A stretch of 64,000 bases of DNA from an uncultured Oscillospiraceae bacterium. GTDB lineage: Bacteria; Bacillota; Clostridia; Oscillospirales; Oscillospiraceae. Position numbers and translations under genes: made by a program. The stretch covers positions 43,263-107,262 of the forward strand of contig CANQVO010000003.1 in the NCBI GenBank assembly GCA_947627325.1. The letters are read 5' to 3'. Shown here in pieces: positions 1-49,000 of this stretch. Each line of letters begins with the position of its first letter. Within the stretch, counting starts at the first letter, position 1. Under the pieces are notes generated by a model that was not told the origin of the DNA, did not search any database, and was given only the letters and a program-made list of their open reading frames with translations.

Positions 1-1023
1 CACGCCCTGGCCCTGGCCGCCGACGGCACCGTCTACGCCTGGGGCAACGGGACCCAGGGCCAGCTGGGCGTGGACCCCTCCACCCTGACCAACAGCACGG
101 AGCAGGGGGGCGACAACTTCCAGTACAGCGTCTCCCCGGTGGTGGCGCGGAACGACAAGGGCGAGCCCCTGCGGGGGATCGTCTCCATCGCCGCGGGCGG
201 CTCGGTCTCCGTGGCCCTGAGCTACGAGGGCAGTATCTACACCTGGGGCGACAACCGCCAGGGTCAGCTGGGCATCAACGCCGACCCCAACGCCGGCGGC
301 AGCGGCAACGAGAACTTCTACCGCGACAGCGCCCAGCAGGTGACCATGGGCCAGCCCTACGGCGGCGGCGCGCCCAACACCAACCAGAGCAACGGCTACC
401 TGGCCATCGCCGCCGGAGGCCAGAGCGCCACCACCCAGAAGAGCTACGGCCACGTCCTGGCCATCCGGGCGGTGCTTACCGACAAGGTGGACAGCACCCT
501 GGTCTACGGCTGGGGCGCCAACGGCTACGGTCAGGTGGGGGACAACTCCGCCGCCCCGGAGGCCAGCCAGGTGGAGCAGACCCACGTCCTCCTGCCCACC
601 GAGGTCCGCTACCGCACCTCCTACGCCGACGAGGACGGGCTCTACTACATCGGCAACCGCACCGTCAGCGTGGCCGCCGGTACGCTCCACTCCCTGGCCA
701 TCGTCCAGAACCGGCCGGAGGGCGTCACCAACGACAGCCAGGACGTGTACTACACCTACGGCTGGGGCTATGACGACCGCGGCCAGCTGGCCCAGGGGGA
801 TGCCTCCGGCAACGTGAACACCTCCGACGGCGGCGGGGACAGCCAGCGGCGCAGTCCCATCCAGCTGCTGGCCAAGGCCCCCGTGGAGGACGGCGCGGGC
901 AACCAGATCAACACCTACGTCACCGACTCCGCCGGGGTGGCCGCCGGCAACGCCTACTCCATCTACTGGGACATCAACGGCGAGGTCTTCGGCGCGGGCT
1001 ACAACTTCACCTATCAGCTGGGC
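1..1023 (+). repeat. RCC1-like beta-propeller P1 (partial, cut by the left window edge)
   Basis: Blade ends in frame +1: HALALAADGTVYAWGNGTQGQLG (1-69), IVSIAAGGSVSVALSYEGSIYTWGDNRQGQLG (178-273), WGANGYGQVG (511-540), WGYDDRGQLA (763-792), GAGYNFTYQLG (991-1023). A ~260 aa non-RCC1 beta-rich spacer follows (1024-1806). Confidence 0.85.
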
Positions 1024-7000: not shown

Positions 7001-10000
7001 CGGACGCCGTTCGGGAGGAGAACCTCCTGCGGGTCACCGAGCCCAGCCTGTTCACCGACCTGTTCCAGACCATCTACCAGCTGGACCCCGTGAGCGACGC
7101 CGCGGAGCTGGCCGCGTTGAGCGCGCGCTATCAGCGCCCCGCCCAGGGCCTCTACCTGGACAGCTACTACCTCTATGTGAAATACCTCCGGGATCTGAGT
7201 ATCTTCGTGGCCCAGCAGGGCGGCGGCCTGACGAGTGCCGGCGCGCTGGAGATGATGTACGACAACAGCGGCGCGCTCATCGTGCCCCTGGAGGACTACC
7301 GGGGCAACGAGATGCCCACCATGGAGACCTACATCCTGGCCCTGGAGCTCTATGACGAGATGCAGAAGTATCTCCAGGAGACCCACAACACCTGGGTGAG
7401 TCTGCCCGGCACCGCCGAGGACTACAAGGCGTTCCACCGCTTTACCCCCGTGGCCAACGCCAAGGTGGACGGGCGGATCGTGTTCAACACCCAGTGGGAG
7501 CTGGCCCGGCCCACCTACACCGGGGTCAAGTGGTCCTACGAGGACTACCAGCGGGCCAAGGCCGAGTACGACCAGCGGCAGCTGGACGGCACCTGGGTCA
7601 GCGTCAACGGCGCCTACGCCAGCGGCCTGGGCGGCGACGTGTTGGAGGGGGAGCCCACCTTCGCCCTCTATACCGCCGTGCCCCAGCAGGTGATGGAGGG
7701 CGAGGCGGCCAGCAAGGGCTACTACCTCAGCGAGATCATGAGCATCAGCGCCGGCCGGGCCCACGTGATGGCCCTGCGGAAGGACGGCGCCCTGTTCGGC
7801 TGGGGCGACAACACCTACGGCCAGCTGGGCCGGGGCGTGGACAGCACCCTGGCGCGCAGTGACAAGTTCGACTGGCAGGACCGGGACGGCCTCTACACCC
7901 GGGGCCAGAAGGCCGACGACGCCGTGGGCGCCACCTTCACCTACCGGGTGCCCGTGCGGGTCAAGGTGGGCCAGATCGTGGGCGCGATGAAGAGTGAATC
8001 GTCCGCGCAGGACAACGCGCTGGGCAACCTGGTCAACGTGATGGAGGTGGCCGCCGGGGGGAACCACACCCTGGTCCTGCTGTCCGACGGCACGGTGGCC
8101 GCCTTTGGCGAGAACACCTATGGCCAGGTGGGCGACGGCACGGTGGCCCAGGTCACCTACGACGTGGCCGGCCTGGTGGACGGGACCAACGGCGAGCCGG
8201 AGGAGGACTGGGTCACCGCCCGGGATCTGGTGGAGGACCAGATCCGGGCGCGGCGCGTGCCCATGGCCGTCCAGGTCATGACAAAGGGCGGCCAGGTGCT
8301 GGGCCAGGTGACTGGCTCTGACGGCGCGGCCAACCGGGTGGTCCGCCTGGCCGCCGGCGGGGACGCCAGCGTGGCCATCGTCCGGGACACCGTGACGGTG
8401 GAGTTCGGCGGGCACACCACGGAGAACACGCTGATGGCCTGGGGCTCCAACATGGAGGGCCAGCTGGGCCTGGACGAGGTGGCGGACGACTGGGTCTCCG
8501 GCGAGCGCACCGCCTTTGTGGGCCACGCCCTCCAGGTACAGCAGGGCACCAGCACCAACACCAACCAGACCTACTCCGGCTTCACCCGGGCGGTGGAGGT
8601 GACGGCGGGCGGCCATCACATGGGCGCTCTGCGGAGCGACGGCTACGTTTGGGACTGGGGCGACAACACCTACGGCCAGCTGGGCGACGGCACCACCGAC
8701 ACCCACTTCGACGCCGTCCAGGCCGGCGACGGGGAGTCCAAGAGCCTGATCCTCAGCGAGTATCAGCGTATCGAGCCCGACGGCACCACCCATACCTATA
8801 ACCAGCTGCGTCCCATGGGTGAGGAGAACGACACCGTGGCCCAGGACGCCTCCAACGACGGCACCAACGGCAACCCCAACATCCTCATCATGGGGGAGGG
8901 GGACTACCTGCGGCTGGACCTGGCCAACATCCTCTACGCCCACCGCACCGGCTTCAACCTGTACAGCGACGGGGAGAACCTCTCCATCCAGGACAAGCTG
9001 GACAAGGTGAAGGTGGGGGTCACCGACGACTCCTACTTTGAAGTCACGGACCTGGGCGGCAGCCAGTATGAGATCCGGCCCACCCAGCGCAGTGACGGCC
9101 AGAAGCTGGGCCTGACCAGTGTCTACATCGACTACGAGTTCGGCGGGGCCACCAACGCCGACCACACCGAAGACCCCGCCACCAGCAACATGATGGTCCT
9201 GCCCATTTGGGCCAGACATAAGCAGATCTACGACGGATCGGAGGGCTCCGACCCGTCCAACGCGCATATCTCCGCGGCCCCCATGGTGGCCGCGGGGGCG
9301 AAGCACGCCGTGGCGCTGGACTCCCTGGGCCGTGTGTGGGTCTGGGGCGACAACAGCCGCGGCCAGCTGGGTCTGGACAACCTGGGCCTGGACGGCGGCG
9401 CGGCCGTGCTGTACCAGGATCACCCCGTCCAGGTCACCCAGTTCCGCAAGATCGACACCGCCACCGGCCAGATCGTGGAGGCCGTGGCTGAAGGCGGCGG
9501 GCCCCTGACCTTCACCGCCGTGGCCGCCGGGGCGTACAGCACCTACGCCGTGGACATCGACGGCCGGGTGTGGGCCTGGGGCGACAACGACAAGGACCAG
9601 CTGGGCCGGGGCACCGACGACCGGTTCCAGGACTTTGAACCCCTCCAGGTCCGGGTGCGGGTGAGCAAGCTCACCACCCTGGGCGACGAGGTCATCACCA
9701 AGGAATATCTGAAAGAACTGCCCGGCGTGGGCACGCTGATCCAGACCTATAAGGACCGGGACAAGATCGTGGCCCTGGCCGCCGGGGACGGCTTTGCCAT
9801 GGCCCTGTCGGAGAGCGGCTTTGTCTACGCCTGGGGCGACAACGCCGCCGGCCAGCTGGGCAACGGCGAGCGCAAGAAGGCCAGCGGTAACTACGCCCTG
9901 TGGGTGAGCAAGGGCAAATCCCCCAGCGACACCAACCATATGCGCGAGGCGGTGGGCATCGCCGCCGGAGGCTCCTCCGGCGCGGTCCTCTTCTCCAACG

Positions 10001-13000
10001 GCACCCTCTTTACCTTTGGACAGAACACCAACGGCCAGCTGGGCGACGGCACCGCTTACAACCGCTACTCCGCCGTCAAGGTCAGCGTGGGCGGGGCCAG
10101 CTGTTATGACAGCTCCGGCGCCGCCAACGGCAAGCCCGGCGTCAACCTCAACGACAAGAACGAAGCCTATCTGAACAAAGTGGTGGCTGTGGACATGGGC
10201 AGGACCCATGCCGCCGCCATCGCCCTGAACATCTCCAAGGCATCCGACGGCACCTTTATCACCAGCCCCGGCGTGTACGGCTGGGGCGGCAACGACCACG
10301 GGCAGATCGGCGCCATCGAGCTGGTCAACACCGACCAGTTGGACGGCGACGGCCAGCCGGTGAAGGTCGCCCAGTCCTACGGCGCCCCCCGGCGGATGAT
10401 CGATTCCGGCGCGCGGCAGCTCAGCGCCGGGTTCAACGCCACCCTGGCGCAGGTGGAGAGCGCGCAGGTCCTTCGGGACAACCTGGTGAAGGGCACCAAC
10501 TACGATCCCGTACAGCTCCTGGCCTGGGGCGACAACACCCAGGGCCAGCTGGGCAACTACGGCATCAGCAAGAACACCCCCAACGGCTCTCCTGTTGACT
10601 ACGACAATACTGTGGCCCGGGAACTCGTCAACGAGATCCAGGTCACTGACCATACCTATCCCTACCACTGGATGCAGAAGGTCTCCACCTCCGCGGTGGG
10701 GGAGACGTTCATCGTCTTCGCCCGGGAGACCGGCACCGTCTTCGCCTCCGGCGACAACACCGCCGCCCAGCTGGGCGACTACACCCTCACCTCCTCCGAA
10801 TACCCCGTGGTAGTGGGCAAACTCAGCTATGAGTCCCTGGCCGTCTACGGCACCGACCACAACGCCGCGGTCCACGACCTGGCCCCCCAAATCACCCTGA
10901 TGGGGAGCGCCGCCGGCGCGGACAAGGCGATCTTCTACCTGGACGACAGCCACACCGGCTACGTGGTGGAAAAGGGCTTCAACCTGCTGGTCCACCAGCC
11001 CATCGCCGCCCTCAAGGCCGGCGAGCTGGAGTTCACCTCCCTGGACGAGAGCATCGTCCGGCTGGAGAGCGCCACGGACACCCGGGTGACCTTCGCCACC
11101 GCCTCGCCCATCAAGTACGGCAACACCTACATCCAGGTCTACGACCGGGCCACCGGCCGCACCCTGCTGCTGCGGGTGTCGGTGGTCCCGGCGACCACCG
11201 ACAGCGGCTTTGCCACCGCCCCCATGATCGCCGCCGGGAAGGACCACGTGGTGGCGCTGAAGGCGGACGGCACCGTGTGGGCCTGGGGCCGCAACGACCA
11301 GGGCCAGCTGGGCGACGGCACCTTTATCGACCGCTCCTACCCCGTCCAGGTGAAGGACGGCGACGGCGATCCCTTTGACCGGGTGGTGGCCGTGGCCGCC
11401 GGGGACAACTTCAGCGTCGTCCTCCGGGACACCGGGGCCACCGGCGAGCTGGACACCACCGACGACCGGGAGGTCTATGTGGTGGGCGGTCTGAGCAGTA
11501 TCACCACCAACCTGATCCACACCCCCAGCGAGGAGGAGCTGACCCAGATCCACCGGGCCAACTTCGCCAAGGTGATGAAGCTGTTCGGCAACGCCGAGCA
11601 GAACGTGCTGGCCTTCTACCAGGACGAGTCCGGGGCGTGGCTCCCCGCCGAGGGCGACCCCAACGACCTCGCCAACTCCATCGGCAACTACTCCAACGAG
11701 CTGGGCGACCTGGTCCGGGGCGTGGAGATCCGGGACGAGGCGGGCGACGCGGTGGTCAACACCACCGGCAGACCCCACCTGGGCGTGAACAACGGCCAGG
11801 CGTACACCGCCCTGCCCTACTCGGAGGAGATCGTCCGCTTCGCCGAGACGATGGGCTATACCCTCTACTACCTGCCCTACTACTTCTACACCACCGCCAG
11901 CGGGGACGACGGCGGCTTCTACATGGACCGGCCCGACCAGTGCCCCAACCCCAACCTGACCCACGACGGGCACTACCTGCGCCGGGAGGTCAAGCCGGAG
12001 ACCCTGAAGTACCTGGGCCCCGCCCAGTTCCAGAACGACCCCGGCCTGACTTATCAGTACAACTCCCTCACCAACTCCGTCACCATCACCCTGGGGGTGG
12101 ATCCCGCCACCGGTGAGACCCGCACCGTGACGCTGGATCAGGTGTACCTGAACACCCACACCGGCGAGGAGTTCCTGGTCTCTCAGGCGTTCATGGACTG
12201 GTACACGACCTGGACGGTGGAGACCATGGAGCGGCTGGAGGAGGGCAACCTCAGCCCCGAGAACCAGACCGACGTCCACTATTATATGTGGAGCCTGGAC
12301 GCCAGCAAGGGCACCAACGAGCGCTGGGCGTACTTCAGCGTGATCACCCGAGATGTGGAGCGCTTCACCGGGCTGTTGCTGTGCGACTACCCGAACTGCG
12401 GGCTCCAGTACGACCCCTCCGACACCATCACCCCCGTGATCTGCAACGAGCCCGGCTGTGACAAGGTGGGCCAGCAGAACTTCCGGCTGATCTATGAGGA
12501 CGCCCAGGACGTCTGGGCCGGGAAGCGGGTCCCCGCGGGCTATGAGACCCACTGGCACCAGCTGGCGGAGGGGGAGAACTCCTACCGCATCTGGCGCTGC
12601 CAGAACGACCACGTCTGGATCGAGTACTACGACAAGGCCGAGGACGTGGCCACCCCCGAGGTCAAACTGCTCACCGACGCCGACGGCGTTGCCATCGCCG
12701 ACATCCTGGACGTGGCCGCCGGGGCGGATCACCTGCTGGCCCTCACCGCCGGGGGCGAGATCTACGCCGCCGGCGCCAACGGCCACGGCGAACTGGGCCA
12801 GAACACCACCCAGGCCATCGGCTCCGCCGTCAAGGTCAAGGGCTTCAAGGGCCGGGACACCCTGGACCACGTGGTGGACCTGGACGCGGGCGAGGGCTAC
12901 TCCATGGCCCTGCTGGGCAACGGCACCGTCTACGCCTGGGGCGACAACAGCTATGGCCAGCTGGGCAACGAACTGGTGAGCGTCACCGCCGACGAGGCCC

Positions 13001-28000: not shown

Positions 28001-31000
28001 CCACCCAGTGGTCGGAGCAGTTCACCGACGAGAAGGAGTCCACCGTCCTCTCCGGCATCCGCTCCATCGCCGCCGGGGCGCACACCTCCGCCGCCGTCAC
28101 CCTGGATGGCCGGGTGTACACCTGGGGCTCCAACAGCGCCTACCAGGCCGGCATCGGCGACGCGGTCCTCACCCAGGACGCCCTGGGCGAGCCGCTCACC
28201 AACGCCCTGGGCGAGCCCACGCCCATCGTGGCCCGCGCCAACCTGGGCCACAAGAACTTCTACTCCATCGGTGATCCCACCCTGATGACCGGGGCCGACG
28301 GCCAGCCGCTGAGCGGCGTGAGCTATGTGGTCCTGGGCGAGAGCCACGGCCTGGCCGTGATGGAGAACAAGGGCGAGGTCTACGCCTGGGGCCTCAACGC
28401 CCAGGGCCAGACCGGCGTGGGCCTGGACGCTACCACCCACACCGACACCAGCGCCGGCGCCAACAACGAAAACCACAACGGCAACACCACCGTCAATCCC
28501 GACAACGACGCCTACTACATCAAGACCGCCACCCTGGTGGCCCGGGGCGACAGCTTCAACGCCGGGGCCGAGACCGGCTTCCAGAGCGCCGTGGCCCTGG
28601 CCGCGGGGGTGAGCCACAGTCTGTTCGTCCGCGCCGACGGCTTTGTCTTCGCCGCCGGGTCCAACGAGGGGTACAAGCTGGGCGCCACCAGCGTCTATGA
28701 GGACACCGCCTCCACCGGCTTCATCACCGGCACCCCCGTGCTGGTGGGCGATCTGGAGTCCAAGGGCCTGGCTATCTACCGAGCGGAGGTCCACGCCAAG
28801 ACCGCCGACGGCGACCCGGGCGATCTGAAGCGGCAGTTCACCTTCGACCCCAACGCCGCCGATCCCAACGCCACCGACGCCACCGTGGCCCAGCTGACCA
28901 TCAGCGAGGACGAGGTGGCGGTGGTGGACTACACCCCCAACGCCTCCGGGGAACAGACCGCCCTGGTGGAGGTCTACTACTCCGGCTTCAACCTGCTGGT
29001 CAACAGCCGCTCCCTGGCCCTGCGCGCCGCCGATGTGAGCCATGTGGAGTGGGTCTCCGGCGACACCAGCGTGGCTACGGTGGACGTGGTCAACAGCGAT
29101 ACCGCCCACAAGGCGGTCATGCGCCCGGTGACGGGCCATTACGGCCTCAGCGTCATCCGGGTGACCAACACCGTCTCCGGCCACACCGGCTCTCTGCGCC
29201 TGACCGTCACCCAGACCCCCGATGGCGGCATCCAGGTGGCGCCCATGGCGGTCACCGGCCTGAACTTCTCCGCCGTCCTGCGCTCTGACGGCACCGTCTG
29301 GGCCTGGGGCAACAACGACTTCGGCCAGCTGGGCGACGGCACCCACGTCACCCGCACCAGCCCCACCCAGGTCCAGATCCAGAACCTGACCGGCCAGGGC
29401 AAGCTGTACCTCACCAACGTGGTGGCCATCGCCGCGGGCGCCAACCACCTGGTCATGCTCACCAACGATGGCGCGGTCTACACCACCGGCGACAACTCCT
29501 TCGGCCAGCTGGGCTACGCCGACGCCGCCACCTACGTCCGGGACGAGGCGGGCGATATCGTCCAGGAACTGGACGCGCGGACCGGCGAGATGGTGAATAA
29601 GATCAACACCGACGTGCCCTACAAGACTGGCTACGCCATGCGGGTGGTCTTCTACGACGAGCTGGGGGCCAGGCTGGAACAGCAGCCCTTCTTCACCGCC
29701 GTGGCCGCCGGGTATCAGCACACCCTGGCCCTGACCCGGGGCGTGCAGGTCACCCAGTATAGCGCTACGGGGGAGGTCACCACCACCGTGAACGGCGGCG
29801 AGGTCTGGGCCTGGGGCGCCAACAGCGCGCCTCTGGGCGCGGGCAACGCGCAGACGCCCACCTTCCAGCTGGGCCGGGGCACCAGCGTGGGCGGCGCCTA
29901 CGCCTACATCCCCCAGCGGGTGCTGAAGGGCGAGAGCGCCTCCGACACCGACTACCTGAGCTCCATCACCGCCATCGCCGCCGGACAGTATAACTCCTTC
30001 GCCGTCCGTTCTGACGGCGTGGTGGCGGGCTGGGGCCTGAACAACTACGGCCAGCTGGGCGACGGCTCCAACGACAACCGGGGCTTGCCCGTCCTCATGC
30101 GGGCCGGGATGAGCGAGAGCGCCGACGGCTATCTCCACAACGCCTTTATGGTCTCCGCCGGACTGAACCACACCATGGTGCTGGTGCGGGTGGAAGACCT
30201 TGTCTATCACCCGGGCCAGGTCCGCAGCGAGATCTACACCGTGGGCGATAACACTTACGGCCAGCTGGGCGCCTGGAGCATGGATCACTTCGGCGCCGCC
30301 AACGCCCAGCACGCCTACGTGGAGTACAGTTCCCTGACCCCCGTCCGCGTCCTGGGCGACCCCAGCGTGAACGACAGCCACAACTGGTTCGGCTCCACCT
30401 TTGACACCGACCACGGCGACAACGTGGTGCTGGTGGCGGTGGCGGCCGGCACCTACCAGAGCTACGCCGTCAGCGAAACCGGGGACCTCTACGCCTGGGG
30501 CAACAACGACCACGGCGAGCTGGGCATCACCGAGCTTGCCGACACCGCCAAGGCGGCCAACACGGAGAACATCCTGCCCACCCGGGTCCTGGCCGGTCTG
30601 AGCGGCACCGGCGCGGCGGGGGAGACCTTCTCCGCGGGCCGGGCCCTGTCGGCCACCTACCACCACGCCCTGGCCCTGAAGGCGGACGGCACCGTGTGGG
30701 CCTGGGGCCAGAACAACGACTGGAAGCTGGGTGAGAACCTGTCCGACCGGACGGTGGCCAGCGGCTCCTACATCTATAACGGCTATCAGTACACCGACCA
30801 GTACGCCGCCGGACAGGACAACACCGGCGAGCGGTGGAACCTGAGTACCAGCCACGTCCACGCGGCCACCACCGTGGCCGCCAACGAGTTGCGCCCCGCC
30901 GCCATCGACGCCACCCGCAACTACCCGGTCCGGGTGGGCGAGGTGGAGGACACGCTGATGATGCTCAGCGACGACCCCGGCAGCTGGGGTGTTGACCTCT

Positions 31001-34000
31001 GGCCCGCCGAGGGGGAGAGCGGCACCGTCTACTTCGCCGGGGACGAGATCATCCGCCTCCGGGACGACCAGCAGGCCGTCATCCGCCTGTCCGATCTCAA
31101 ACAGCAGTACCTGGCCGGCTTCAATACGCTCCAGCGCAACAGCGCCGAGCTGGCCTTTGACGGCCTCACCGTGGCCGATCCCAACCTGCGCGTCAGCCTC
31201 ACCGATCCCCGCCTGGGCCGGGTGGAGAAGGTCGCCAACGTGACCGACGGGGTGGACGGCATCGTCTTCACCCCCAGCACCGACACCATGGGCTCCACCA
31301 TGATGGAGATCAGCTACACCGCCGCCGACGGCGCGACCTACACCATGCTGATCCACCTGGTGGTCAGCCGCCGCGCCAGCGACAGCGCCACCCGCTTTGA
31401 CCAGCGCGCCCGCGCCGACGTGGCTACCCCCGCCCTCAGCGCCGGCGCCGCCCACACCATCTCCCTGAAGGCGGACGGCACCGTCTGGACCTGGGGCTCC
31501 GGCGCTCAGGGCCAGCTGGGCGATGGCACCACCAACTCCTTCGCCTATCCCATCCCCGTCTACCGGGGCGACCAGGAGGAGTACTTCTACTGTCCCGTGT
31601 GCGACAAGCCCATCCCCGCCAGCGCCTTTGACGCCAACGGCCATTACACCTGCGCCCACCTGGACGGCTCCCTGGAGCTGGATCGGGCGGCGCTGGAGAG
31701 CACCGGGCCCTACCTCCACCACATCGTGGCGGTGGCCGCCGGGAGCAACTTCTCCCTGGCCCTGGATATGTGGGGCAACGTGTGGGCCTGGGGTTCCGGG
31801 CCGGTGGTCAACGGCGGGACCATGAGCGTCCTGCCGGTGAAGGTGGACTTCTCCGCCGCCTTTGACGAGGACTACCCGGACATCTCCGGCCAGCCCGCCA
31901 CGCCGGACGCCGCCGACGAAGACGGGGTCATCGTGGTGTCCATCGCCGCCGGGCGGGACCACGCCGTGGCCCTGGACGCCAACGGCTCGGTCTGGGCCTG
32001 GGGCAACGACGGCTTCGGCCAGCTGGGCGACGACGCGGCCACCTACACCGACGCCGCCGGCGCCAGCGTGGACAAGTGGAACTGGAGCGTCAACTACGCC
32101 GGCGCCGTGAGCACCTACGACCTCTACAACGGCTCCTGGCACAGCTACGCCCGGATCCGGGAGGACCTGCTCTACAACCTCCTGGCCGACCAGGCCGCCA
32201 GCCTCTCCGCCCGGGACACCCAGTACGCCCCCGTCCACGTGACCCGGGGCGAGGCCGCCGTCCGGGGCCTGAGCCCCACGGTGGGCTATAAGTATCTGGA
32301 CCACATCGTGGACATCGCCGCCGGGGACTACTTCACTATGGCCCTGCGCTCCGACGGCACCGTCTACATTTGGGGCAAGAACGACACCGCCCAGCTGGGC
32401 CAGGGCAACCTGACGGCCGGGAACGGGACGCGGGTCCAGGCCGACCGGCTGGACCGCTACGTGCCCACCCAGGTCAAGAGCGCCGACGGCCGGCGCGCCC
32501 TCACCGGCGTTGTGGACCTGGACGGCGGCAAGAGCCACGCCGTGGCCCTGACCCGGGACGGCGCGGTGTACACCTGGGGCCAGACCTACCTGCGCTATGA
32601 CTACCCCAGCGGCACCTCCTACGTCCGGGGCAGCAACGCCGAGGCCAGCACCGACTACGACCACTACGGCGAGTACTTCCCCGACTACCGCTATGAGAAC
32701 CACAGCCTGCCCGTGGCGGTGACCATTCCCGCCGGGGAGGACGACCGGGTGGTGTCGGTGGCCGCCGGGGCCCACGCCAGCTACGCCGGGACGGCGGGCG
32801 GCGCGGTGTACGCCTGGGGCTCCAAGTCCAACGGCCAGCGGGCTGGCGGGGACAACGCCAGCACCGCGGTGAACAACGCCTGGAACAACGCGGGCTTCGC
32901 CGTGTCCGTGGACCGCGCCGGCGGCGCCGTCCAGACCGACGACAGCGGCGCCATCCGCTATACCTCCGGCGACGTGACCCAGGTGGTGCACGGGGAGGGC
33001 CCCGCCGACGACAGCGGCGCCTACCTCGACCACGTGACCGCCCTGGCCGCCGGGGAGAACACCGCCTTCTTCCTCACCGAGGATGGCTACGTCTACGCCG
33101 CGGGGACCAACTCCGAAGGGCAGACCGGCTCCCTGGCCTACGGCGGCACCATGCACGCCGACGGCCTCAGCGTGGGCCATCCCGTGCTGGTGGGCGCGCG
33201 GGCCGCGGAGCTGACCCGGATCACCACCGGCTCCCTCACCGCCGCCGTGGACAGCGGCGCGGACGTGAACATCACCGCCAACCCCGCCAACGACACCCGG
33301 GGCCGGGCCCAGTATTTCGCCCCCGCCCAGGCCGCCGCCGTGGACGTGGCGGGCAGCAGCCTGAACACCCAGGACCTCCTCTACATGGGCGGTCTGCCCG
33401 TGGAGGTGCAGATGACCCGCAGCCAGGTCCTCACCGTGGACGCCGCCTCCATCGTGGAGGACAGCGAGAAGGGCTATAACCTCCACTGGACCCGCACCGT
33501 GCGGAACGCGGACACCGCCGTGGCCGACGGGGAGGCCCAGTCCGCCGCCGACTACGCCGACCGCTTCACCTTCTTCTCCAGCGACGAGAGCATCGTCCAG
33601 ATCAACTACGTCACCGACAGCGAGGGCCGGAACGTGGGGGCGAAGATCATCCCCACCGGCCAGATCGAGGGCGAGTACTACGACCGCTTCGGCACCGCCA
33701 CCGTGGTGGTGGTGGACCGGGTCAACAAGAACTGGGGCTCCTTCAAGGTCACCGTCTTTGGAGAGGGCACCAATGAGGACGGGGACGCCATCGTCTCGGT
33801 GGAGAAGGTCTACGCCGGTTACGACACCACCTACGCCATCAAGCGTAACGGCACCGTCTGGACCTGGGGCCACAACCTCAACGGCAACCTGGGCCTGTCC
33901 ACCCAGTCCGCCGAGCAGGTGGAGACGATCACCGAGTCCCCCGCCCGGTACTTCACCTGGAAGTTCTACCCCGCCGACCACTATCAGGCCGGGGAGGACG

Positions 34001-37000
34001 GCGATTGGGACACCGCCTACGAGGCCGCGGAGACCGCCCTGGCCACCTGGACGGCCACCGAGAGCGCCCGCCTGAGCGCCTACAACACCGCCAAGAGCGA
34101 CCTGGACGCCATGGGCTGGGCCGCCCAGCGGGACGACCTCATCGCCCGCATCGACGCCCTGGCCAACGAGACCACCGCCGCCATCACCCAGATCGACCAG
34201 AGCGTCACCACCCTGAACACCTACGACGTTCCCGAGATCAGCAAGATGGCCGAGCATATGGCCGCGCTGAAGACCGCGCTGACCACCCGCCTCGCGGGCT
34301 ATCAGAATATGCGCCAGGCCCTGGCGAACCTGGGAGACGACCCCGCCGCCAGCGAGTTCGCCGCCCTGGTGTCCAACCTCACCGACAGCTATGAAAAGGG
34401 CGGTGTGACGGTGGGCCAGAACGCCATCAACGATCTGTTGGCCGCCGGCGGACCCTTCGATCCCAACGTGACCGTCCCCACCGACTACGCCTCCGCCACC
34501 ACCGACCGGGAGAAGTTTGAGGTGGCCGTGCGGGCCGTGATGCCGCCGGACGGCGGCGACGCGTCCCAGGCCATTGTGCAACCCGACCCGCTGGACGAGT
34601 ACAAGAGCGCCTATGACGCCGTCACCCGCATCGACAAGCTCCTGCAGGGCGCCGAGATCGACCCGGCCGGGGCCAGCGCCGCCCCCGGCGCCGGGAGCAG
34701 CGCCCTGTCCACCGCCGCGGCGGACCTCTTCAACGCCTACAAGGCGATGAACGCCAACGAGTACTTCCAGAAGCGCACCACGGTGGACGACAAGTGGACG
34801 GAGTGGATGGACGCGAAGAAAGAGGCCGACCCGTACCGCAACACCATGGCCTTCTACCAGGCGATGATGGATCTGGACCGGGTCGACCAGGCCGACGGCT
34901 CCTACACCAACCGCTACCCCGGCGTGGTGGCCATCACCGGCCTGAGCGACGAGGGCAAGGCGGCCCGGGAGTTGGTCCTGCCCACCCGCCTCACCGAGAG
35001 CGACTACACCACCGTCTTCCAGAACGACCAGACCGCCGCCGACGCGCTGGCCCTGACGCCCAGCGTGCCCGTGGTCCTGGTGGACTTTGATGAGAACAAC
35101 ACCGGCCATCAGTTCTCTGACGGAGCCTTCACCTCCCTGACCCTGTCCGGGAGCTATCAGGTCGTGCGCGTGGGCGCCTTCCAGAACACCCGGATGAACA
35201 CCCTGGTGTTCCAGGCGGAGATCCCCACCAGCGGCGCGATCCTGGCCTCCTCCTTCACCTCGGACGCCTATACCGACACCCCGTACAGCCAGCCCAACAG
35301 CTATCTGACCCAGGTGGAGGTGGACAACGTCCAGCTCGCCGGCGGCCAGATGAAGCCGGACGCCCTGGCGGCCACCGGCATCTTCTCCGGCGTGCACATC
35401 GTGGCGGTGGAGCCCGAGGAGGCGGAGGAGGAGCCCGACCGCGAGAGCACCACCATCATCACCCCCACGCAGATGGCCGGCGTGGAGGGCCGGGGCCAGC
35501 TGGGCACCGGCACCGACTGGAACCCGGCCATCGTGAAGATGGCGGTCAACCGGGACCACCCCGAAATGTCCGGCGCGGGCGGCCACGCCCTGGCGGTGGA
35601 CGCCTACGGCAACGTCTACGCCTGGGGCTACAACTCCTACGGCCAGCTTGGCAACGGCAACACCAACTACTATAAGTATCCCACCCGGGTGCTGGCCGGG
35701 ACCAGCCCCTACTGGTACGTCATGGGCAGCGACGAGCGCCGCTACTACACCGACGGCGGCGAGGGCTACTATACGGTGGACGAGCACAAGAACAGGGTCT
35801 ACTATGTGGACCGGGACGCCGTTCTGGTGGCCCTGGGGGAGGAGGGCTCCCTGGGTGAGGAGCGGTATCTGACCGGCGTGGTGGACGTGGCCGTGGGCTT
35901 TGACCACTCCCTGGCCCTTCTGCGGGACGGCACCGTGCTGGCCTGGGGCAACAGCTACCGCGGCCAGGCCGGCGATGCCAACGACGGCGTGGCCCGCTCC
36001 CTGACCCCGCAGTTCGTCCGTCAGGGCGGCAGTGTGGGCGAGGGCATCTGGCTCAACAACGTGATCTCGGTCAGCGCCTCCGGCCAGTCCACGGTGGAGG
36101 GCACCTCCGCCGTCCTGCGCTCCGACGGCACCGTGCTGGCCTGGGGCTCCAACGCCAACCGCCAGCTGGGCGACGGCACCACCCAGAGCGCGCAGGGCCC
36201 CCGGGGCGTCCAGACGGACACCGACGGCTTCACCGGCAAGGGCACCAGCGACCAGACCTACCTGGACGCCGCCGGTCAACCGCGCTATATCGACCCGCAC
36301 CAGCAGAAGAACTACGCCGACCTCGGCGGCGCCGGGATCGTGCCCGACACCGACAACTACCTGGTGGGCGTGGGGACTCTGCTGGGCCAGGACAGCGCCG
36401 CGGGCGGCGTCGTGGAGCTGGATATGAGCCGCAACCACGCCGTGGCTTTGAAGGATACCTATACCTGGTACGACTATAACGGGAAGCTCTATCCCTGGCG
36501 GTCCTCCGGCACCGTGTACACCTGGGGCGTGGACAGCAAGGGCTCCCTGGGCCGCGCCGTCGTCTCCCTGGGGACGGACTCCCTGGGCCGGGCCGTGAGC
36601 GGCGCCGGCCTGGCCGGCCCGGTCACCGGCACCGACGCCACTGACCCGGAGAGCTATGTGGTGGAGAACATCTACTACCGCATGGCCAGGGAGTACGGCG
36701 CCTCCCGCGCCCTCACCGACGAGGAGAAGATCATGGTCGCCAAGTTCCAGGCCCTGGCCTGGATCCGGGACCAGGCGGCCGGGAAGTCCTACACCGTCAC
36801 CTCCGACGACGTGGCCGCGGACCACGGCGGCTGGGAGAAGTGGGCGTCGGACGACGTGGACGCCACCAAGTATCCCAACAGTCCGCTGTGGACTGTCTCC
36901 GGCGTGGGCCAGGGACAGCTGATGATCTCCCACGTCCAGGCGGGCGGCACCTTCTCCCTCTTTGACACCGAGGAAGGGGACGTGTACAGCTGGGGCGACA

Positions 37001-40000
37001 ACGCCGACGGCCAGCTGGGCGTCACCGAGGACGACAAGGTGACCGGCAACGTGTCCTCCGCCGCCACGCCTCAGCGGGTGATGGACGGCGCCAACAACAT
37101 GGCCGTCCGGGACCTGAACGACACGGAGATCCTCTATCAATACACCACCAACGACACCTCGGGCGGCCTGGTGACCCTGAACGGCACCGCCCGGACGCTG
37201 TACTTCGCCCGCAACCAGGGCCTGGCCGCCGGGTATCGGCACTCCGCCGCCATCAACTGGGAGGGCTACGTGTACGTTTGGGGCAACGGCGAGAACGCCC
37301 AGGTGGGCAACTTTGGCACCGAGACCGCCTACTTCCCCACCCGCTCCGGCCCGCTGCCCTACAAGAGCCTGGAGATCCAGCGCTCCACCATCCAGGACGC
37401 CAACGGCCAGGTGCGGGAGCGCTACTACGCCAACACCGACAACGAGCCGCCGCTGGAGGTCATGCTCCACCACGGCCAGCGCTATGCGATGCCCTGGGAC
37501 GACGGGGCCATGCTCCAGATCAACTACAAGGGCTTCAACCTGTACAGCGACATCGACATCTCCGACGTGTACGGCAACCACGTGGAGATGAGCTCCTCCA
37601 ACCCCGACGTGGTGAAGGTCTGGCGGGACAAGGCCGGCGTCTGGTACGCCGCCCCCACCGACAACGAGGTCTTTGGCCGCTCCACCGTCACCTTCAGCAT
37701 CACCCTGCCCGACAACACGGTGTACTCCGGCTCGGTGCTCATCGCCGTGCTGGACGACGGGGCGAAGGCCGTGCCCATGCTGGCCTCCGGCAACGACTTC
37801 ACCATCGCCCTGCGCTCCGACGGCACCGTTTGGGCCTGGGGCGCCAACGACTACGGCCAGCTGGGCACCGGCGAGGCCATGGACCAGAGCAACACCCTCA
37901 ACAGCGGCGTGGGCGCCGCCCGCAACGCCCCCGTCCGCGTGCAGATCCCCGCCGACGTGGCGATCAGCTACATCGCCGCGGGCAACACCTTCGCCCTCGC
38001 CGTCACCGACCAGGGCAACGTCTACGCCTGGGGCAACAACGGCTCCGGCCAGCTGGGTATCAACGTCGGCACCGCCGCCGTCTCCACCCCCACGCTGGTG
38101 GCCAACCTCTACGGCGAGGCCGGTGTGCTGGAGCACATCGTCCGGGTGGAGGCCGGGGACAACTTCGCCCTGGCCCTGTCCTCTGACGGCGGCGGCGCTC
38201 TGGCCTGGGGCGACAACACCTACGGCCAGCTGGGCAACAACACCTGGCAGTCCCGGCCCTTCCCCGTGCGGGTGCTGGGCTACATGGGCGGCAACTACAT
38301 GACCAACTCCTCCGGCATCGCCGCCGGCGCCCGCCACGCCCTGGCCATCCGCTCCGACGGCGCGGTGCTGGCCTGGGGCGACAACGCCGACGGTCAGCTG
38401 GGCGTCAAGGACGCCCTGACCAAGTCCCGCAACACCGCGGACGTGGTCAAGAACCAGGAGGGCGACCAAGACCAGTACACCCAGGGCGCCGACGGCATCA
38501 CCAGGATCACCAGCGTGGTGGCCGGGGACAACTTCACCCTGGCCCTGGCCCGCAACGGCACCGTCTTCGCCTGGGGCTCCGACCTCATTGGCAAGGCGGG
38601 CAGTCAGACCCTCTACGGCCAGCTGGGCCTGGGCGAGGGGGACAACTCCTCCAACTTCCCGAAGAAGCTGGGCGATATGACCAACATCGTGGCCCTGTCC
38701 GCCAAGGGCGCCACCGCCCTGGCGCAGAGCTCCAACACCTATGCCTACACCCTGGACGGCGAGACTTACGAGTTCCGCATCAGCCAGATGACCCCGGGCA
38801 ACACCACCGTCCCCGGCGGCGCGGCCCACAGCTACAGCTGCCAGATGGATCAGCCCGATCCCGACGGCAACCCCATCTCCCGGGATGACGCCTGCGGGGA
38901 GACCCATGTCTACTACGACGGCGTGCCGGAGTACGTCAACGTCACCGCCACCGCCCGGAAGGCGGACGGCACCACCCGGCAGGTGGAGTTCAACCGTGGC
39001 ACCCAGGCGGTCCAGGGCAACCACATCTACGTTTGGGGCAACAACGACCACGGCCAGCTGGGCGTGGGGTACAGCAACAGCGGCATCCTCAACAGCGAGA
39101 CCCCCATCCTGGCCGACTTCAACACCCCCGGGTACGACACCTACTTTAACAACTTCGCCTACAACACCTTCCAGGCCAGCGTGGGCAAGACCCACACCGC
39201 CGTGCTGGGCGAGGACGGGTACGTTTACAGCTTCGGCGAGGGCGAGCTGGGCGAGCTGGGCGACGGCCGGGCCATCTCCAGCGACCAGCCCCTGCGTACC
39301 GGCGCCCGGGAGGAGAGCGTGGTGGTGGAGTACCCCGACGCCAACACCATCCGGCCCGACACCTCCATCAACACCGACGTCTCCCGCCGGGTGGTCACCC
39401 TGAACAGCAACCGCGTCAGCAACGGCGCTGTGCACACCGACAGCTATGAGCTGAACCTCAACGACCTGTGGCTCAAGGAGTACACCGGCTTCAACCTCTT
39501 CCTGCCCGACACCAAGATGAGCGCGCTCACCGCCCACGGCGGCACCCTGGCCGGCAACCTCCACGTGAAGATCGTGGACGAGAGCCTGCTGACCTACGCC
39601 TACGACCGCAGCCGCACCCGCCTGACCTTCAGCGCCGTCCACCCCGACAAGTTCGGCGAGACCATGGTGGTGCTCACCTATGACTACACCGACCCCGCCA
39701 CCGGGGAGACCTTCCACTACGTCTACCAGTTCCCGGTCTTCGTGAAGGACACCAACAAGTCCACCAACGACAGCGCCACCGTGGCCCAGGTGGGCGCGGG
39801 CAACTACCACTCCGCGGTGCTCCGTCCCGACGGGACCGTGTGGACCTGGGGCCAGGGCACCTCCGGCCAGCTGGGCGACGGCGCGGCCACCCTGGAGCGC
39901 AAGGCGTACCCCGTCCAGGTGACGGCGGGGGCACAGAGCGCCGCCTGGGCCTGCCCGCAGTGCGGCCGGGTCTACGACGAGGCCCACAGCTTCGCCACCG

Positions 40001-46000: not shown

Positions 46001-49000
46001 TCGGCCAGGTTTGGGCCTGGGGCCGCAACGACAAGGGCCAGCTGGGCGCCGGCGACGGCCGGGGCGACAGCTCCAACGTGCCGCTGAAGGTGCTGACCAC
46101 CGGGAACCATCTGGATCTGCCCATCACCCGCATCTTCGCCGGAGGCGACTCCTCCGCCGCCATCGACGCCCAGGGTCACCTGTACGTTTGGGGCGACAAC
46201 GCCTACGGCCAGTTGGGTCTGCCCGCCGCGGACAAGGAGGGCCTCCCCCTGGAGCAGGAGAGCGTGGTCACCACCCTCCAGCGCGCCGTGGCCGGGGAGA
46301 GCCGGGAGAGCGGCCTCGCCGGGACGCCCTGCGTCACCGCCGGGGACGACAACGCCTTCCTGGGCGCCCAGAGCGTGGCGCTGAGCCACTCTCAGACCAC
46401 CATCTATAAGAACAACGTCTGGGTGACCGACGCCGATGGCATCACCCGCACCCAGGCGCCGCAGAACGGCGGGAGCCTCTACGCCATGGGTACCACCGGC
46501 GCGGGCACCTTCCTGAACGTGAACAGCGGCGCGAGCATCTACCACAGCTCCACCAACACCCTGGGCGACGACAAGACCGCGGGCTCGCCCAACCTGCCCG
46601 TGCTGGTGGGCACCCGGGACGAGGACACCATCTACATCAGTCAGATCGGCTACATCGCCGACTTCATGCACTACGGCGACGTGGTCTACCAGGACTTTGA
46701 CGGCGCCCTGACCCAGCACACCCTGGCCGACCCGGCCAGCGGCCACGGCTCGGCCACCACCGGCGAGTTCAACACCGCCCGCGTCCAGCTCACCGAAGGG
46801 GACGCTCTGCGGCTGAACCTCACCTACCACAAGGAGATCGAGGTGGTGGACCAGGCGGAGGCCCCGGAGGATCGGAACGAAGAGCTGGACGGCCCGTGGA
46901 CGCCGACCACCCATACGGAGACCGTCACCGGCGACAACCTCCAGCGCTACGCCGTGGTGGGCACCGACCTGTTCCGCACCGCCGGTACGGAGGGGGCGGA
47001 GGACGGCCTGTTCCTCTTCAGCACCCAGGACAACGGCCCCGGCACCGCGGGGATCGACAAGGGCGTTTACACCGCCAGCCGCAAGCCCATGGAGACCGGG
47101 GACTTCACTGTCATCTCTTCCGATGAGTCCATCCTGGCCGTCCACGTCAAGCCCGGCACGGACGGGTATTTCGAGCTGCGCGCCATGCCCAACGCCTTCG
47201 GCACCGTCACCGTGATGATCCGGGAGAACACCACCCAGGTCACCCGTATGTTCTCCGTGTCCGTCCGGCCCAAGGAGGACCGCACCGAGTCGCCCAACGT
47301 GAAGCTGGCCGCCCCCAAGGTGGTCTACGGGGAGAACTTCGCCCTGGCCCTGATGAGCGACGGCACCGTCTGGACCTGGGGCGACAACACCCACGGCCAG
47401 CTGGGCGACGGCACCATCGGCGCGGGCGCCTATGAATACGCCCCCGTCCAGGTCCGGGGCAAGAACGGCAACGGCTACCTCAAGGGCATCGTGGACGTGG
47501 TCGCGGGCGCCCACTACGCCATGGCCCTGGCCGCCGACGGCACCCTGTGGGCCTGGGGCGACAACACCCACGGCCAGCTGGGCGTGGGCAGCAGTGAAAA
47601 TGACCAGCGCTATCCCGTGGAGACCAATTTGAGCGCTGTCAACGCCTACGGCGCCGTCGCGCAGATCTCCGCCGGCTACGACCACGTCCTGGCCGTCACC
47701 GACCGGGGCTACGCCTTCGGCTGGGGCACCAACGGCTACGGCCAGATCAACCGCCGGAGCGAGAGCTTCAACGACGTGACCACCCCCGTCCGCCTGGAGC
47801 GGCTGGGCCTGATAAACAACGTCGAGCACAACACCGACCACATCTATGACGAGGGCTTCCTGGTGAATGTGGAGAGCGTCTACGCCGGGCGGCAGTACAG
47901 CCTGATCCGCACGGTGGGCGGCGCGGTGTACAGCTTTGGCCGCATCAACGGCGGCAGTTACGACATCGGCGATTCCGGCGTCTCCGCCACCAACGGCGAG
48001 GCCCGCCAGCGCCTGCCCATGCCCGTCCGGGAGGGCGGCGAGCGCAACCAGGAGGGCAACTATCTGCGGGACGTGCTGTTGGTGGCCGCGGGCAACCTCT
48101 CCACCGCCGACCACATCCTGCTCCTGAGCGCCAACGCCGTGAGCTATGCCCCCAAGGCCGAGGGCGGCGCCACCACCATTCGGGCGAGCGCCACCGGGGA
48201 CGACCCGTCCCGGGTCTACGCCGTCGGAGACGACACGCGGGCGGTTGCCCTCATCGAGAGCGACAAGAGCGGCACCCTCTACGGCATCGGCTCCAACAGC
48301 CAGAACCAGCTGGGGGCCGACCGGCCCGCCGACCTGGCCGCCGCGCGGCCTGTGGTGGTCAACGGCCTGACCAGCGCGCTGGACACCGACCTGGGCGAGA
48401 TCCCCGCCGCCGTCAGCGCGGAGGACCGGGTGGTCTTCCTGGCGGTGGGCGGCACCCGCGGCGGCGTCCTCACCCGGGCGGGCGACGTGCACCAGTGGGG
48501 CGGCGGCGCGACGGAGGTGAGCACCCTCCGGGCCGAGGCGGTGAACGCCACCGCCGTCAGCGACCAGAACTACGGCGAGACCGGCCTGGACTTCAGCGAG
48601 GGCAAGGTGAAGCAGACCTACGCCCTGGCCATGGGCAACGGGGCCAGCGTCATCCTCAAGAGCGACGGCACCCTGTGGGCCTGGGGCGACAACACCTACG
48701 GCCAGTTGGGCGTGGGCGTGGCGGACGTGGCCTACACCGCCGCCATGGACACCCCCGGCCAGGTCTACTACGCCCAGGAGCAGACCTACCGCCTGGCCCT
48801 CCAGCAGGTGGAGGTAGGCGCCGGGGACGACAGCGGCGCCTTCAGCGCGGCCTTCGCCCTGCATATGCCCTGGGAGATCCAGCTGAGCAAACAACAGCGC
48901 CAGACCTTCCGCATCCCCGCCGAGGAGATCGCCGTCCAGCGCGCCGACACCTTCAACCTCCTGACCCAGGATGTGTGGTATCCGGGCCTGTACGCCTCCG

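Follow-up and report, generated by a model that had tools for sequence, protein, structure and literature searches.

A putative tethered binding head: an LRR-like core and helical bundle nested in one RCC1 propeller of a giant Oscillospiraceae protein

RCC1-type giant genes of Oscillospiraceae are an already described class, in which the encoded proteins are described as extracellular and as consisting of one repeating domain over their entire length (West-Roberts et al. 2023, bioRxiv 10.1101/2023.11.21.568195). BspA-like proteins act as adhesins on the surface of mucosal microbes (PMC2843621). The window, which is the whole 64,000-nucleotide stretch of DNA that was analyzed, is a single +1 open frame of 21,333 residues and covers part of a gene of 40,694 codons from a rabbit gut metagenome. 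Like the described giant genes, this gene lies in a gut Oscillospiraceae MAG, has an open reading frame of more than 30,000 aa, is dominated by RCC1 propellers, and encodes a protein predicted to be extracellular; a signal-peptide-like sequence can be seen by eye at the N terminus. Its giant-gene relatives likewise come from MAGs of uncultured Oscillospiraceae or Clostridia. In contrast to the single-domain description, the RCC1 blades extend only to about aa 28,373 of the 40,694, and one propeller contains a predicted folded non-RCC1 module. RNA support for the locus consists of two short contigs only. A dockerin at the C terminus is not claimed, since Pfam calls only a Cadherin-like domain there.

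Host propeller and insertion site

To locate the blades, an RCC1-blade HMM was built for this analysis, and it matched the complete protein of 40,694 aa at 223 places. The host propeller has its blade 1 at aa 11252 to 11303 (43 bits), and the next blades start at aa 11827/11838, leaving a gap of 524 aa after aa 11303. This gap agrees with a preliminary description made from the letters of the DNA, according to which an insertion of ~530 aa (nt 33895 to 35480) splits the propeller after blade 1. The blade motif GHNLNGNLG ends at nt 33894, as had been noted, and RCC1 blades resume in the expected place, with TPTQMAG..GRGQLG from ~35461. Together with later hits at aa 11838, 11945, 12008, 12115, 12294, and 12391, the blade tally is 1 + 6 = 7, and seven hits are the norm for the other well-resolved propellers of the protein. 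Pfam searches of nt 30001 to 39000 returned WD40_RLD (E 2.5e-199), RCC1_2 (E 7e-148), and RCC1, all above threshold, which together with the 1 + 6 blades identifies an RCC1-like propeller whose ring closure is unseen in the model. An AF2 job on 1196 aa (the whole propeller including the insert) left the propeller unfolded at a pLDDT of 42 and is unusable as evidence for closure. The blade count and the shorter version of the insert in the relative G095 (see below) suggest that the propeller closes again around the insert.

BLASTP detected no paralogue of the insert within the window, and a profile search detected no second copy of its C-terminal part in the full 40,694-aa protein. Homology to a helical insertion in propeller P3 (nt 7021 to 7731) was rejected (BLASTP E 0.87). 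A second, small helical insertion was observed within the later blades of the host propeller, at nt 36664 to 36792, and other propellers of the protein carry unrelated insertions with no Pfam match. At the level of the assemblies, misassembly as the source of the insertion is excluded, because independent MAGs, produced by different studies, carry the same insertion in the same position.

Architecture and ancestry of the insert

When the insert was modeled alone, AF2 returned a mean pLDDT of 86.2 and a pTM of 0.78, with 313 of 526 residues at a pLDDT of at least 90 and low confidence limited to the two ends and one loop. The model is composed of one beta-strand, ~290 residues of antiparallel helices (15 to 42 residues each), and then an alpha/beta part, with disordered ends (Table 1). 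The confidence of the long helices may be flattering, because the AF2 alignment comprised just 13 sequences, of which several are close.

Table 1. Positions of the insert and of the host propeller within the window
Feature	Position (nt)	Strand	Evidence
Blade 1 of host RCC1 propeller, aa 11262-11298, ...NGTVWTWGHNLNGNLG	33784..33894	+	Blade HMM, Pfam
N-terminal tether, LSTQSAEQVETITESP	33895..33942	+	AF2, orthologue comparison
Strand beta-0, ARYFTWKFYPAD, part of LRR-like core	33943..33978	+	AF2 strand E18-24, block pLDDT 86-92
Helical-bundle excursion, ~290 aa, aa 11327-11616	33979..34848	+	AF2, block pLDDT mostly 85-97
LRR-like alpha/beta core, aa 11617-11803: AFYQAMMD helix, RYPGVVAITGL, LVLPTRLTESDY, VVLVDFD, ...GIFSGVHIVAV	34849..35409	+	AF2, profile
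Recognizable BspA-type (LRR_5) repeats, ~two units, aa 11700-11754, NTGHQFSDGAFTSLTLSGSYQVVRVGAFQNTRMNTLVFQAEIPTSGAILASSFTS	35098..35262	+	hhalign, PDB profile
Acidic C-terminal tether, EPEEAEEEPDRES	35410..35448	+	AF2, orthologue comparison
Six further blades of host propeller, TTIITPTQMAG... to ...YVWGNGENAQVGNFG	35449..37317	+	Blade HMM

Two stretches of low model confidence, one of them acidic, connect the core with the propeller. Model residues 1 to 9 (aa 11301 to 11309) of the N-terminal tether have a pLDDT of <50, and its sequence varies among orthologues. The acidic linker that had been reported before the blades resume is present and is predicted by AF2 to be disordered, with model residues 507 to 526 at a pLDDT of <50. 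This acidic run is kept across the genus and in the relatives G200 and P0004 and is missing in G095.

The helices of the bundle span model residues 35-70, 73-105, 111-142, 150-166, 168-180, 202-211, 232-248, 268-282, and 285-326, and the last of these runs on to aa 11626, into the LRR-like core segment. The same helices reappear in the independent 1196-aa model. The first ~300 residues had been described as helical, and nt 34003 to 34914 as rich in Ala, Leu, Asp, and Thr with long Gly/Pro-free stretches. The former is borne out by the confident model and the latter by the composition (Ala, 18.8%; Asp, 10.5%; Thr, 9.2%; Leu, 6.9%). Gly makes up 4.9% of this region versus 11.3% of the whole frame, and the region contains the three longest stretches of the 21,333-residue frame that are free of Gly and Pro (45, 38, and 37 aa). 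The bundle has no Pfam match and no PDB sequence match, and phmmer of the whole insert against PDB sequences yielded nothing at E≤10. Searched with Foldseek against PDB and viral structures, the insert model had no match at E≤0.001. Pfam matches of the insert to Ebola HR1-HR2 (E 0.19) and CBM60 (E 0.05) are at chance level, and hhalign gives no support for repeats within the helical part (probabilities, 0.6 to 38%).

The compact alpha/beta core that sits in the loop between blades 1 and 2 is of BspA-type LRR descent. The profile of its family (A4) aligned over 52 columns with canonical LRR_5 repeats from the same genome (hhalign probability, 91.6%; E 8.2e-7), and all seven of its matches in the PDB are BspA-type LRR proteins, the best being 4gt6 (E 4.8e-7) and 4h09 (E 1.2e-6). 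These data bear out the suspected BspA-type LRR patch as kinship at the profile level, confined to about two repeats. The proposed LRR_5 (PF13306) match was not obtained, as neither the insert nor its LRR subrange in the window copy matched this family at E≤10. LRR_5 was nevertheless the only Pfam family to recur, being found below threshold in four of nine members and in G200 as well. Scores of the homologues were 14.1 (L003), 21.1 (P0003 and P0004), and 18.2 bits (G200), and no copy reached the gathering cutoff of 27.7 bits that Pfam membership requires. In the AF2 model, short strands lie at model residues 341, 357, 388, 412, 434, 471, and 499 (block pLDDT, 75 to 96). The last five are spaced 22 to 37 residues apart, of which a spacing of 22 to 28 residues would be compatible with LRR rungs, the repeats of a BspA-type solenoid being ~23 residues long; about two repeats align, and the Foldseek hits are dominated by the helical part. 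The core is 46 to 49% identical to its orthologues and contains conserved polar motifs, e.g., LPTxLTESDY, VDYD, and SFTxDAYxxxPY.

Relatives, nesting, and domain gain and loss

The preliminary description had proposed a comparison of homologous genes to distinguish a conserved from a lineage-specific insertion. The same site proved to be filled in five genomes of the same genus (G002, G003, G004, G006, and G007; ORFs of 39.6k to 42.5k aa; 36 to 42% identity) and in two of another genus (G200, 30,029-aa frame, E 1e-33; G095, 23,568-aa frame, E 6e-18). Five further genomes of the same genus, in which an orthologue with an empty site was sought, gave no match and contain giant-gene fragments at most, with open frames of ≤7,968 aa in three and no RCC1-domain match in two, so that they are uninformative on this point. 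The helices of G200 are homologous to those of the window (BLASTP E 6e-11). As judged by these matches, the insertion is old, with a bundle that predates the split of the two genera.

G095 retains FTWNYF...FWDVLATYAANNGYPGLPIITGL and the core, has no helices, and has just ~200 aa between blade 1 and blade 2. Because G095 keeps the core without the helices, the bundle is nested inside the core: it emerges as ~290 aa of antiparallel helices between the first strand (YFTWKFY, whose FTW is kept in all orthologues) and the first helix (AFYQAMMD). The serial layout proposed earlier, a helical stalk followed by an LRR patch, is thereby replaced, since this strand and this helix belong with the core. 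In G004 and L019, ~190 extra beta residues lie between helices 2 and 3. Neither Pfam nor PDB sequences gave a match to the extra segment of G004, and its reading by eye as MucBP-like is not supported by these searches. Compared across these genomes, the bundle was cleanly lost in one lineage, and two further beta domains were gained in one turn elsewhere.

A phmmer search of 1.84 billion representative proteins retrieved only three fragments, each belonging to this type of gene and covering the LRR-like core part only, so that there is no broader family to draw on. A metagenome scan for the insert added no diversity.

Interpretation and comparison with known systems

The layout is best explained as three domains nested one inside another, the outermost being one seven-bladed RCC1 propeller of a secreted protein. 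We consider the nested module to be a tethered, side-mounted predicted binding head, composed of an LRR-derived core and a helical bundle in a propeller loop, with a probability of roughly 0.6. The module would hang off the side of the propeller chain; the conserved LRR-like core may serve in binding or as a scaffold, as is typical of BspA-type surface proteins, and the fast-evolving bundle may form a variable, projecting surface or arm. Candidate ligands are host mucus, dietary particles, other microbes, and another part of the same fiber.

Selection was estimated from two close genome pairs, in which dN/dS was 0.15 and 0.38 for the helical part, 0.22 and 0.45 for the core, and 0.11 and 0.16 for the blades, at dS values of 0.35 to 1.0. 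By these ratios, the entire module is constrained by purifying selection, though two to three times less strongly than the blades. Relaxed selection, like lineage-specific loss of the bundle, would be expected as well of a tolerated passenger, in which an LRR gene fragment captured long ago is decaying in a permissive loop without a function of its own. Erosion of the LRR_5 similarity below the Pfam threshold, large lineage-specific indels that extend to complete loss of the helical part, and the Pfam-less insertions of other propellers are also in keeping with a passenger. We nonetheless regard this explanation as unlikely, since dN/dS still lies between 0.15 and 0.45, nine insert copies across two genera contain no stops or frameshifts, the predicted fold is confident, and the polar core motifs are conserved. 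In addition, no piece of the locus is better conserved than the adjoining blade 1, which has 77 to 87% identity to five orthologues versus 50 to 60% for the remaining six blades.

The insert had also been called coiled-coil-like, of which the helical part stands and the coiled-coil part holds only loosely. A 3.5-residue periodicity exceeded that of 2000 shuffles in two of seven helices (H73-105, p 0.016; H232-248, p 0.004), and the heptad signal is absent in the longest helices of the insert. The longest helix has 42 residues, and Gly/Pro turns occur every 15 to 42 residues. Where a canonical coiled coil has long uninterrupted helices between chains, AF2 packs these helices within one chain, and a canonical coiled coil in the insert is not established by the model. 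The two periodic helices, the several amphipathic helices of 30 to 42 residues, and the low model confidence of both tethers would suit an oligomerization or hinge element, whose helices pair with neighboring molecules or with another part of the fiber and thereby bundle the proteins or bend the chain; oligomeric helical proteins, e.g., ClyA, are also among the weak Foldseek neighbors. We judge such an element to be quite improbable, because the bundle is predicted to be self-contained in a single chain, five of the seven helices have no heptad signal, G095 lacks the bundle, and beta domains interrupt it in G004 and L019. Furthermore, the insert cannot be a hinge in the chain axis, because it lies in a side loop of the propeller and not between beads. 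The evidence leans toward a head on tethers and away from a fiber-axis hinge.

That there is no insertion, with blade 1 an orphan remnant and the segment a linker before a six-bladed propeller, is very hard to credit: the long AF2 job assembled no propeller, so closure was not seen directly, but the other well-resolved propellers have seven blades, blade 1 directly follows an Ig-like spacer like every other propeller entry, the insert is followed by a canonical TPTQxxG blade-entry strand with no Ig-like spacer, and blades 1 and 2 of G095 are close together.

The proposed head adds a modest detail to a class of giant genes that had been described before. The analysis shows that individual propellers harbor conserved and foldable modules of non-RCC1 type, one or more of which descend from adhesin-type LRRs, and it provides a clean natural case in which domains are nested three levels deep within a loop of a beta-propeller. 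In gut Oscillospiraceae, giant RCC1 proteins amount to ~5% of a 2.3-Mb genome, and inserted modules are the first concrete handles on their function, being small enough for expression, binding, and structure work. Gain and loss of modules between lineages mark sites where the protein adapts. Only tentatively do we suggest that this is an undescribed type of inserted head for bacterial giant fibers, in which an LRR-derived core presents a fast-evolving helical bundle whose fold has no recognizable relative and lineages lose, keep, or decorate it with extra beta domains to retune binding, with the RCC1 chain as display scaffold. If so, the chain would display different inserted heads and would not be a monotonous repeat protein.

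Among known systems, BspA-type LRR proteins (LRR_5, PF13306; 4gt6, 4h09, 4fdw, 4fd0, and PcpA 4cp6) resemble the core over ~55 residues (aa 11700 to 11754), which align profile to profile with the repeat F-x-x-C-x-x-L-T-x-V-x-I-P-x-x-V-x-x-I-G-x-x-A-F, and the setting, an extracellular protein of a gut Firmicute, is also shared. However, only about two repeats are recognizable here, they have lost the motif Cys, and the Pfam gathering score is not attained. Unlike BspA-type arrays, which stand free, the core lies within a propeller loop and is in turn broken by the 290-aa bundle. The best, weak Foldseek neighbors, Trypanosoma brucei HpHbR (4x0j) and ClyA (4pho), are likewise elongated bundles of long antiparallel helices, a resemblance that at E values of 0.02 to 0.07 and TM-scores of 0.1 to 0.3 is generic and is no evidence of relationship. 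The alpha-subunit of integrins has an I (inserted) domain in a seven-bladed beta-propeller, and its ligand binding is proven. As a functional analogy only, both proteins have a separately folding domain between two early blades, two linkers, and a side-mounted head, whereas the integrin domain has a vWF-A fold with no homology to the module described here, for which a binding role is proposed.

The host gene and the insertion site

The window is a single open reading frame in frame +1 throughout its 64 kb and forms part of a giant ORF of 40,694 codons, which makes up about 5% of the 2.3-Mb source genome (68% GC). The giant ORF likely starts at an ATG with GGAGG upstream, followed by what reads by eye as a putative signal-peptide-like sequence (...ILSLFVTPVAAATGSAQ). 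With a blade HMM trained on the protein's own sequence, we found 175 RCC1 blades in the window, corresponding to about 27 propellers that are mostly seven-bladed and separated by spacers of 150 to 270 aa. Around the insert, Pfam matched RCC1, RCC1_2, and WD40_RLD. The last RCC1 blades lie at about aa 28,373 of 40,694, and the remaining ~12,300 aa are something else; the sole Pfam match in the final 2,321 aa is Cadherin-like, and dockerin-like DxNxDGxID loops were read there by eye only. The relatives are MAGs titled uncultured Oscillospiraceae or Clostridia, and rabbit-gut metagenome runs match the window sequence at 100%. The gene class is known as "Oscillospiraceae RCC1-type giant genes" (bioRxiv 10.1101/2023.11.21.568195), and the insert is a new variant within this already known class.

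Upstream of the giant gene, a by-eye reading gave housekeeping-like genes (SecA-like, PurL-like). Directly downstream are two large ORFs with signal-peptide-like starts, putatively secreted: the first (1,922 aa) has no Pfam match, and the second (at least 2,569 aa) matches MBG_2 and He_PIG. An antisense open frame of 14,408 codons opposite the giant gene is presumably a by-product of high GC and sense-frame codon usage.

The preliminary description placed an insertion after blade 1 of one propeller. The blade HMM confirmed this, with a blade-free gap of 524 aa, and all quoted boundary strings were found where they had been located. Blade 1 comes after the Ig-like spacer just as in other propeller entries. 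Past the insert, the chain resumes with the customary "TPTQxxG" strand and a further six blades, giving the host propeller 1 + 6 = 7 blades, the norm in the giant protein. The helical subrange contains 18.8% Ala and 4.9% Gly, versus 11.3% Gly overall, and its long Gly/Pro-free stretches, also described earlier, include the three longest to be found anywhere in the 21,333-aa frame. No paralogue of the insert was found within the window, and a profile search detected no second copy of its C-terminal part in the full giant protein. Elsewhere in the window, five more stretches without blades (346 to 1,064 aa), some of them insertions within propellers, yielded no Pfam family at an E value of ≤0.01. 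Between later blades, the host propeller carries another small helical insertion (ENIYYRMAREYG...LTDEEKIMVAKFQALAWIRDQAAGKSY), whose length differs among orthologues; it showed up only in the long AF2 model, which is of low confidence.

Coordinates of the insert and of associated features (model residue 1 = aa 11301 of the giant protein)
Feature	Location	Strand	Remark
Open frame	window 1-63999	+	frame +1
Giant ORF	G000:C3:40068-162152		source genome
Downstream ORFs	G000:C3:162467-176000		locus L038
Antisense open frame	window 20530-63756	-	
Blade 1	window 33784-33894	+	blade HMM hit ends at aa 11303
Next blade	aa 11827/11838		start
Strand YFTWKFY	model 18-24		AF2, insert alone
Helices	model 35-70, 73-105, 111-142, 150-166, 168-180, 202-211, 232-248, 268-282, 285-326		AF2, insert alone
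Alpha/beta part, short strands	model 341-348, 357-359, 363-365, 388-394, 412-415, 434-437, 471-475, 499-503		AF2, insert alone
Low-confidence stretches	model 1-9, 257-262, 507-526		507-526, acidic linker
LRR-aligned columns	aa 11700-11754		52 columns
Matches to RNA-run contigs	window 34189-34339, 35299-35469		runs X13, X10
Second small helical insertion	window 36664-36792	+	same propeller
Other blade-free stretches	window 3232-6423, 11488-12660, 46231-47268, 58855-60372, 61240-62358	+	
Loci with extra residues in bundle	L013:2911-5115	-	
	L019:3199-5400	+	

Predicted fold and LRR ancestry of the insert

An AF2 model from blade 1 to the propeller end (1,196 aa, 6 sequences) failed overall, with a pLDDT of 42, yet contained helices in the insert at pLDDT values of 60 to 80. 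When the insert was modeled alone (13 sequences), the mean pLDDT was 86.2 and the pTM was 0.78, with low confidence limited to three stretches. No Foldseek relative of this model was found in PDB or BFVD at an E value of ≤0.001; the best neighbors were weak and were elongated helical bundles of a generic kind, namely trypanosome HpHbR, ClyA, and designed bundles. Of seven helices, only two had a heptad periodicity above that of shuffles, and no internal repeats were detected in the helical part, indicating a single-chain antiparallel helical bundle. Thus, of the segment formerly called helical and coiled-coil-like, the helical character is supported by the AF2 model and a coiled coil is not demonstrated.

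A possible BspA-type LRR patch had also been proposed. Pfam LRR_5 does not match the window's own copy. LRR_5 is the sole Pfam family that recurs among homologues, always under the 27.7-bit cutoff: in locus L003 (E value, 0.046), in protein fragments P0003 and P0004 (3e-4), in the second-genus genome G200 (0.002), and in four of the nine members of the C-terminal-part alignment, A4. When a profile of the nine C-terminal parts was compared with PDB sequences, all seven matches were BspA-type LRR proteins (4gt6, 4.8e-7; 4h09, 1.2e-6; then 4fdw, 4fd0, PcpA 4cp6, 4fs7, and 4oju). Profile-profile comparison with the genome's own canonical LRR_5 repeats gave a probability of 91.6% and an E value of 8.2e-7. 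These two results show that the proposal was right in ancestry, though not as a Pfam-grade family member. The patch comprises about two recognizable repeats, set in an alpha/beta core that is larger and irregular. In two same-genus genomes (G002 and G007), a 22-aa insertion falls within the LRR repeats.

Distribution, nesting, and selection

The insert is conserved in homologues, being present at the same site in 5 of 10 same-genus genomes at 36 to 42% identity, in giant proteins of 39.6k to 42.5k aa; the other five hold fragments of the giant gene at most and hence are uninformative. Searching 301 family genomes with the C-terminal-part profile revealed the module in a second genus as well, in the giant frames of G200 (30,029 aa; E value, 1e-33) and G095 (23,568 aa; 6e-18). 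A search of 1.84 billion representative proteins matched no more than three fragments, all from the same kind of gene; hence, the module is restricted to this giant-gene lineage. In both second-genus genomes, the giant gene consists of two adjacent long frames (G095, locus L034 on G095:C3, 8,404 and 23,568 aa; G200, locus L033 on G200:C1, 8,036 and 30,029 aa), which could mean that the gene is truly split, that a stop codon interrupts it, or that the assembly is wrong. An insert-bearing fragment of a giant RCC1 gene (L019; CAZMHE010000064.1, 13.6 kb) lies in a MAG labeled Sangeribacter (Bacteroidota), probably through a binning error.

The preliminary description laid out the parts of the insert in series. 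In G095, the order is blade 1, ...SAFTWNYF-DVATMTANSTAAGD-FWDVLATYAANNGYPGLPIITGL..., the LRR-like part, and blade 2, such that the strand and last helix turn are retained without the ~290-aa bundle. G200, of the same genus, has a bundle homologous to that of the window (E value, 6e-11; 29% over 234 aa), indicating that the bundle is older than the split of the two genera and was lost in G095. In genome G004 and contig L019, ~190 extra beta-rich residues lie in the turn that links helices 2 and 3; this piece resembles two beta domains (Y-x-V-x-H-Y ... L-x-L-x-L-Y-Y) and has no sequence match in Pfam or PDB. The layout is thus nested rather than serial: the propeller holds the LRR-like core, which holds the helical bundle, which in some lineages holds the beta domains. 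The rest of the earlier structural interpretation largely stands.

Identity to the window is 24 to 38% for the helical part, 46 to 49% for the C-terminal part, and 77 to 87% for blade 1, versus 50 to 60% for later blades. Blade 1, which has GNLG in place of the usual GQLG, adjoins the insert and may touch it. Values of dN/dS (Nei-Gojobori), from two pairs of close genomes, were 0.11 and 0.16 for the blades, 0.15 and 0.38 for the helical part, and 0.22 and 0.45 for the C-terminal part. These values indicate that the insert is under purifying selection that is weaker than on the blades by a factor of two to three. The main sober rival, in which the insert is a passenger that is simply tolerated, is unlikely. 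The insert is old, real, and constrained. Strain variants at ~94 to 96% identity occur in other gut samples. Short contigs from two runs labeled RNA align to the insert, each with a single mismatch, and hint weakly that it is transcribed in vivo.

Proposed working of the module

The insert is a separately folding module in the loop between blades 1 and 2, to which it connects through two stretches of low model confidence; it is conserved and evolves under purifying selection. Its function is inferred. We picture the module as a tethered head that would project sideways from the propeller chain. Its conserved core, which carries polar motifs such as LPTxLTESDY, VDYD, and SFTxDAYxxxPY, could supply a binding or scaffold role of the kind known for BspA-type surface proteins (PMC2843621), and the bundle would act as a rapidly evolving extension that is dispensable. 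Oligomerization of the giant protein through the insert helices is, taken together with a hinge, improbable. A hinge in the fiber axis is unlikely because the module sits in a side loop. For the insert as a tethered side head, the closest working analogy, without homology, is the integrin I-domain.
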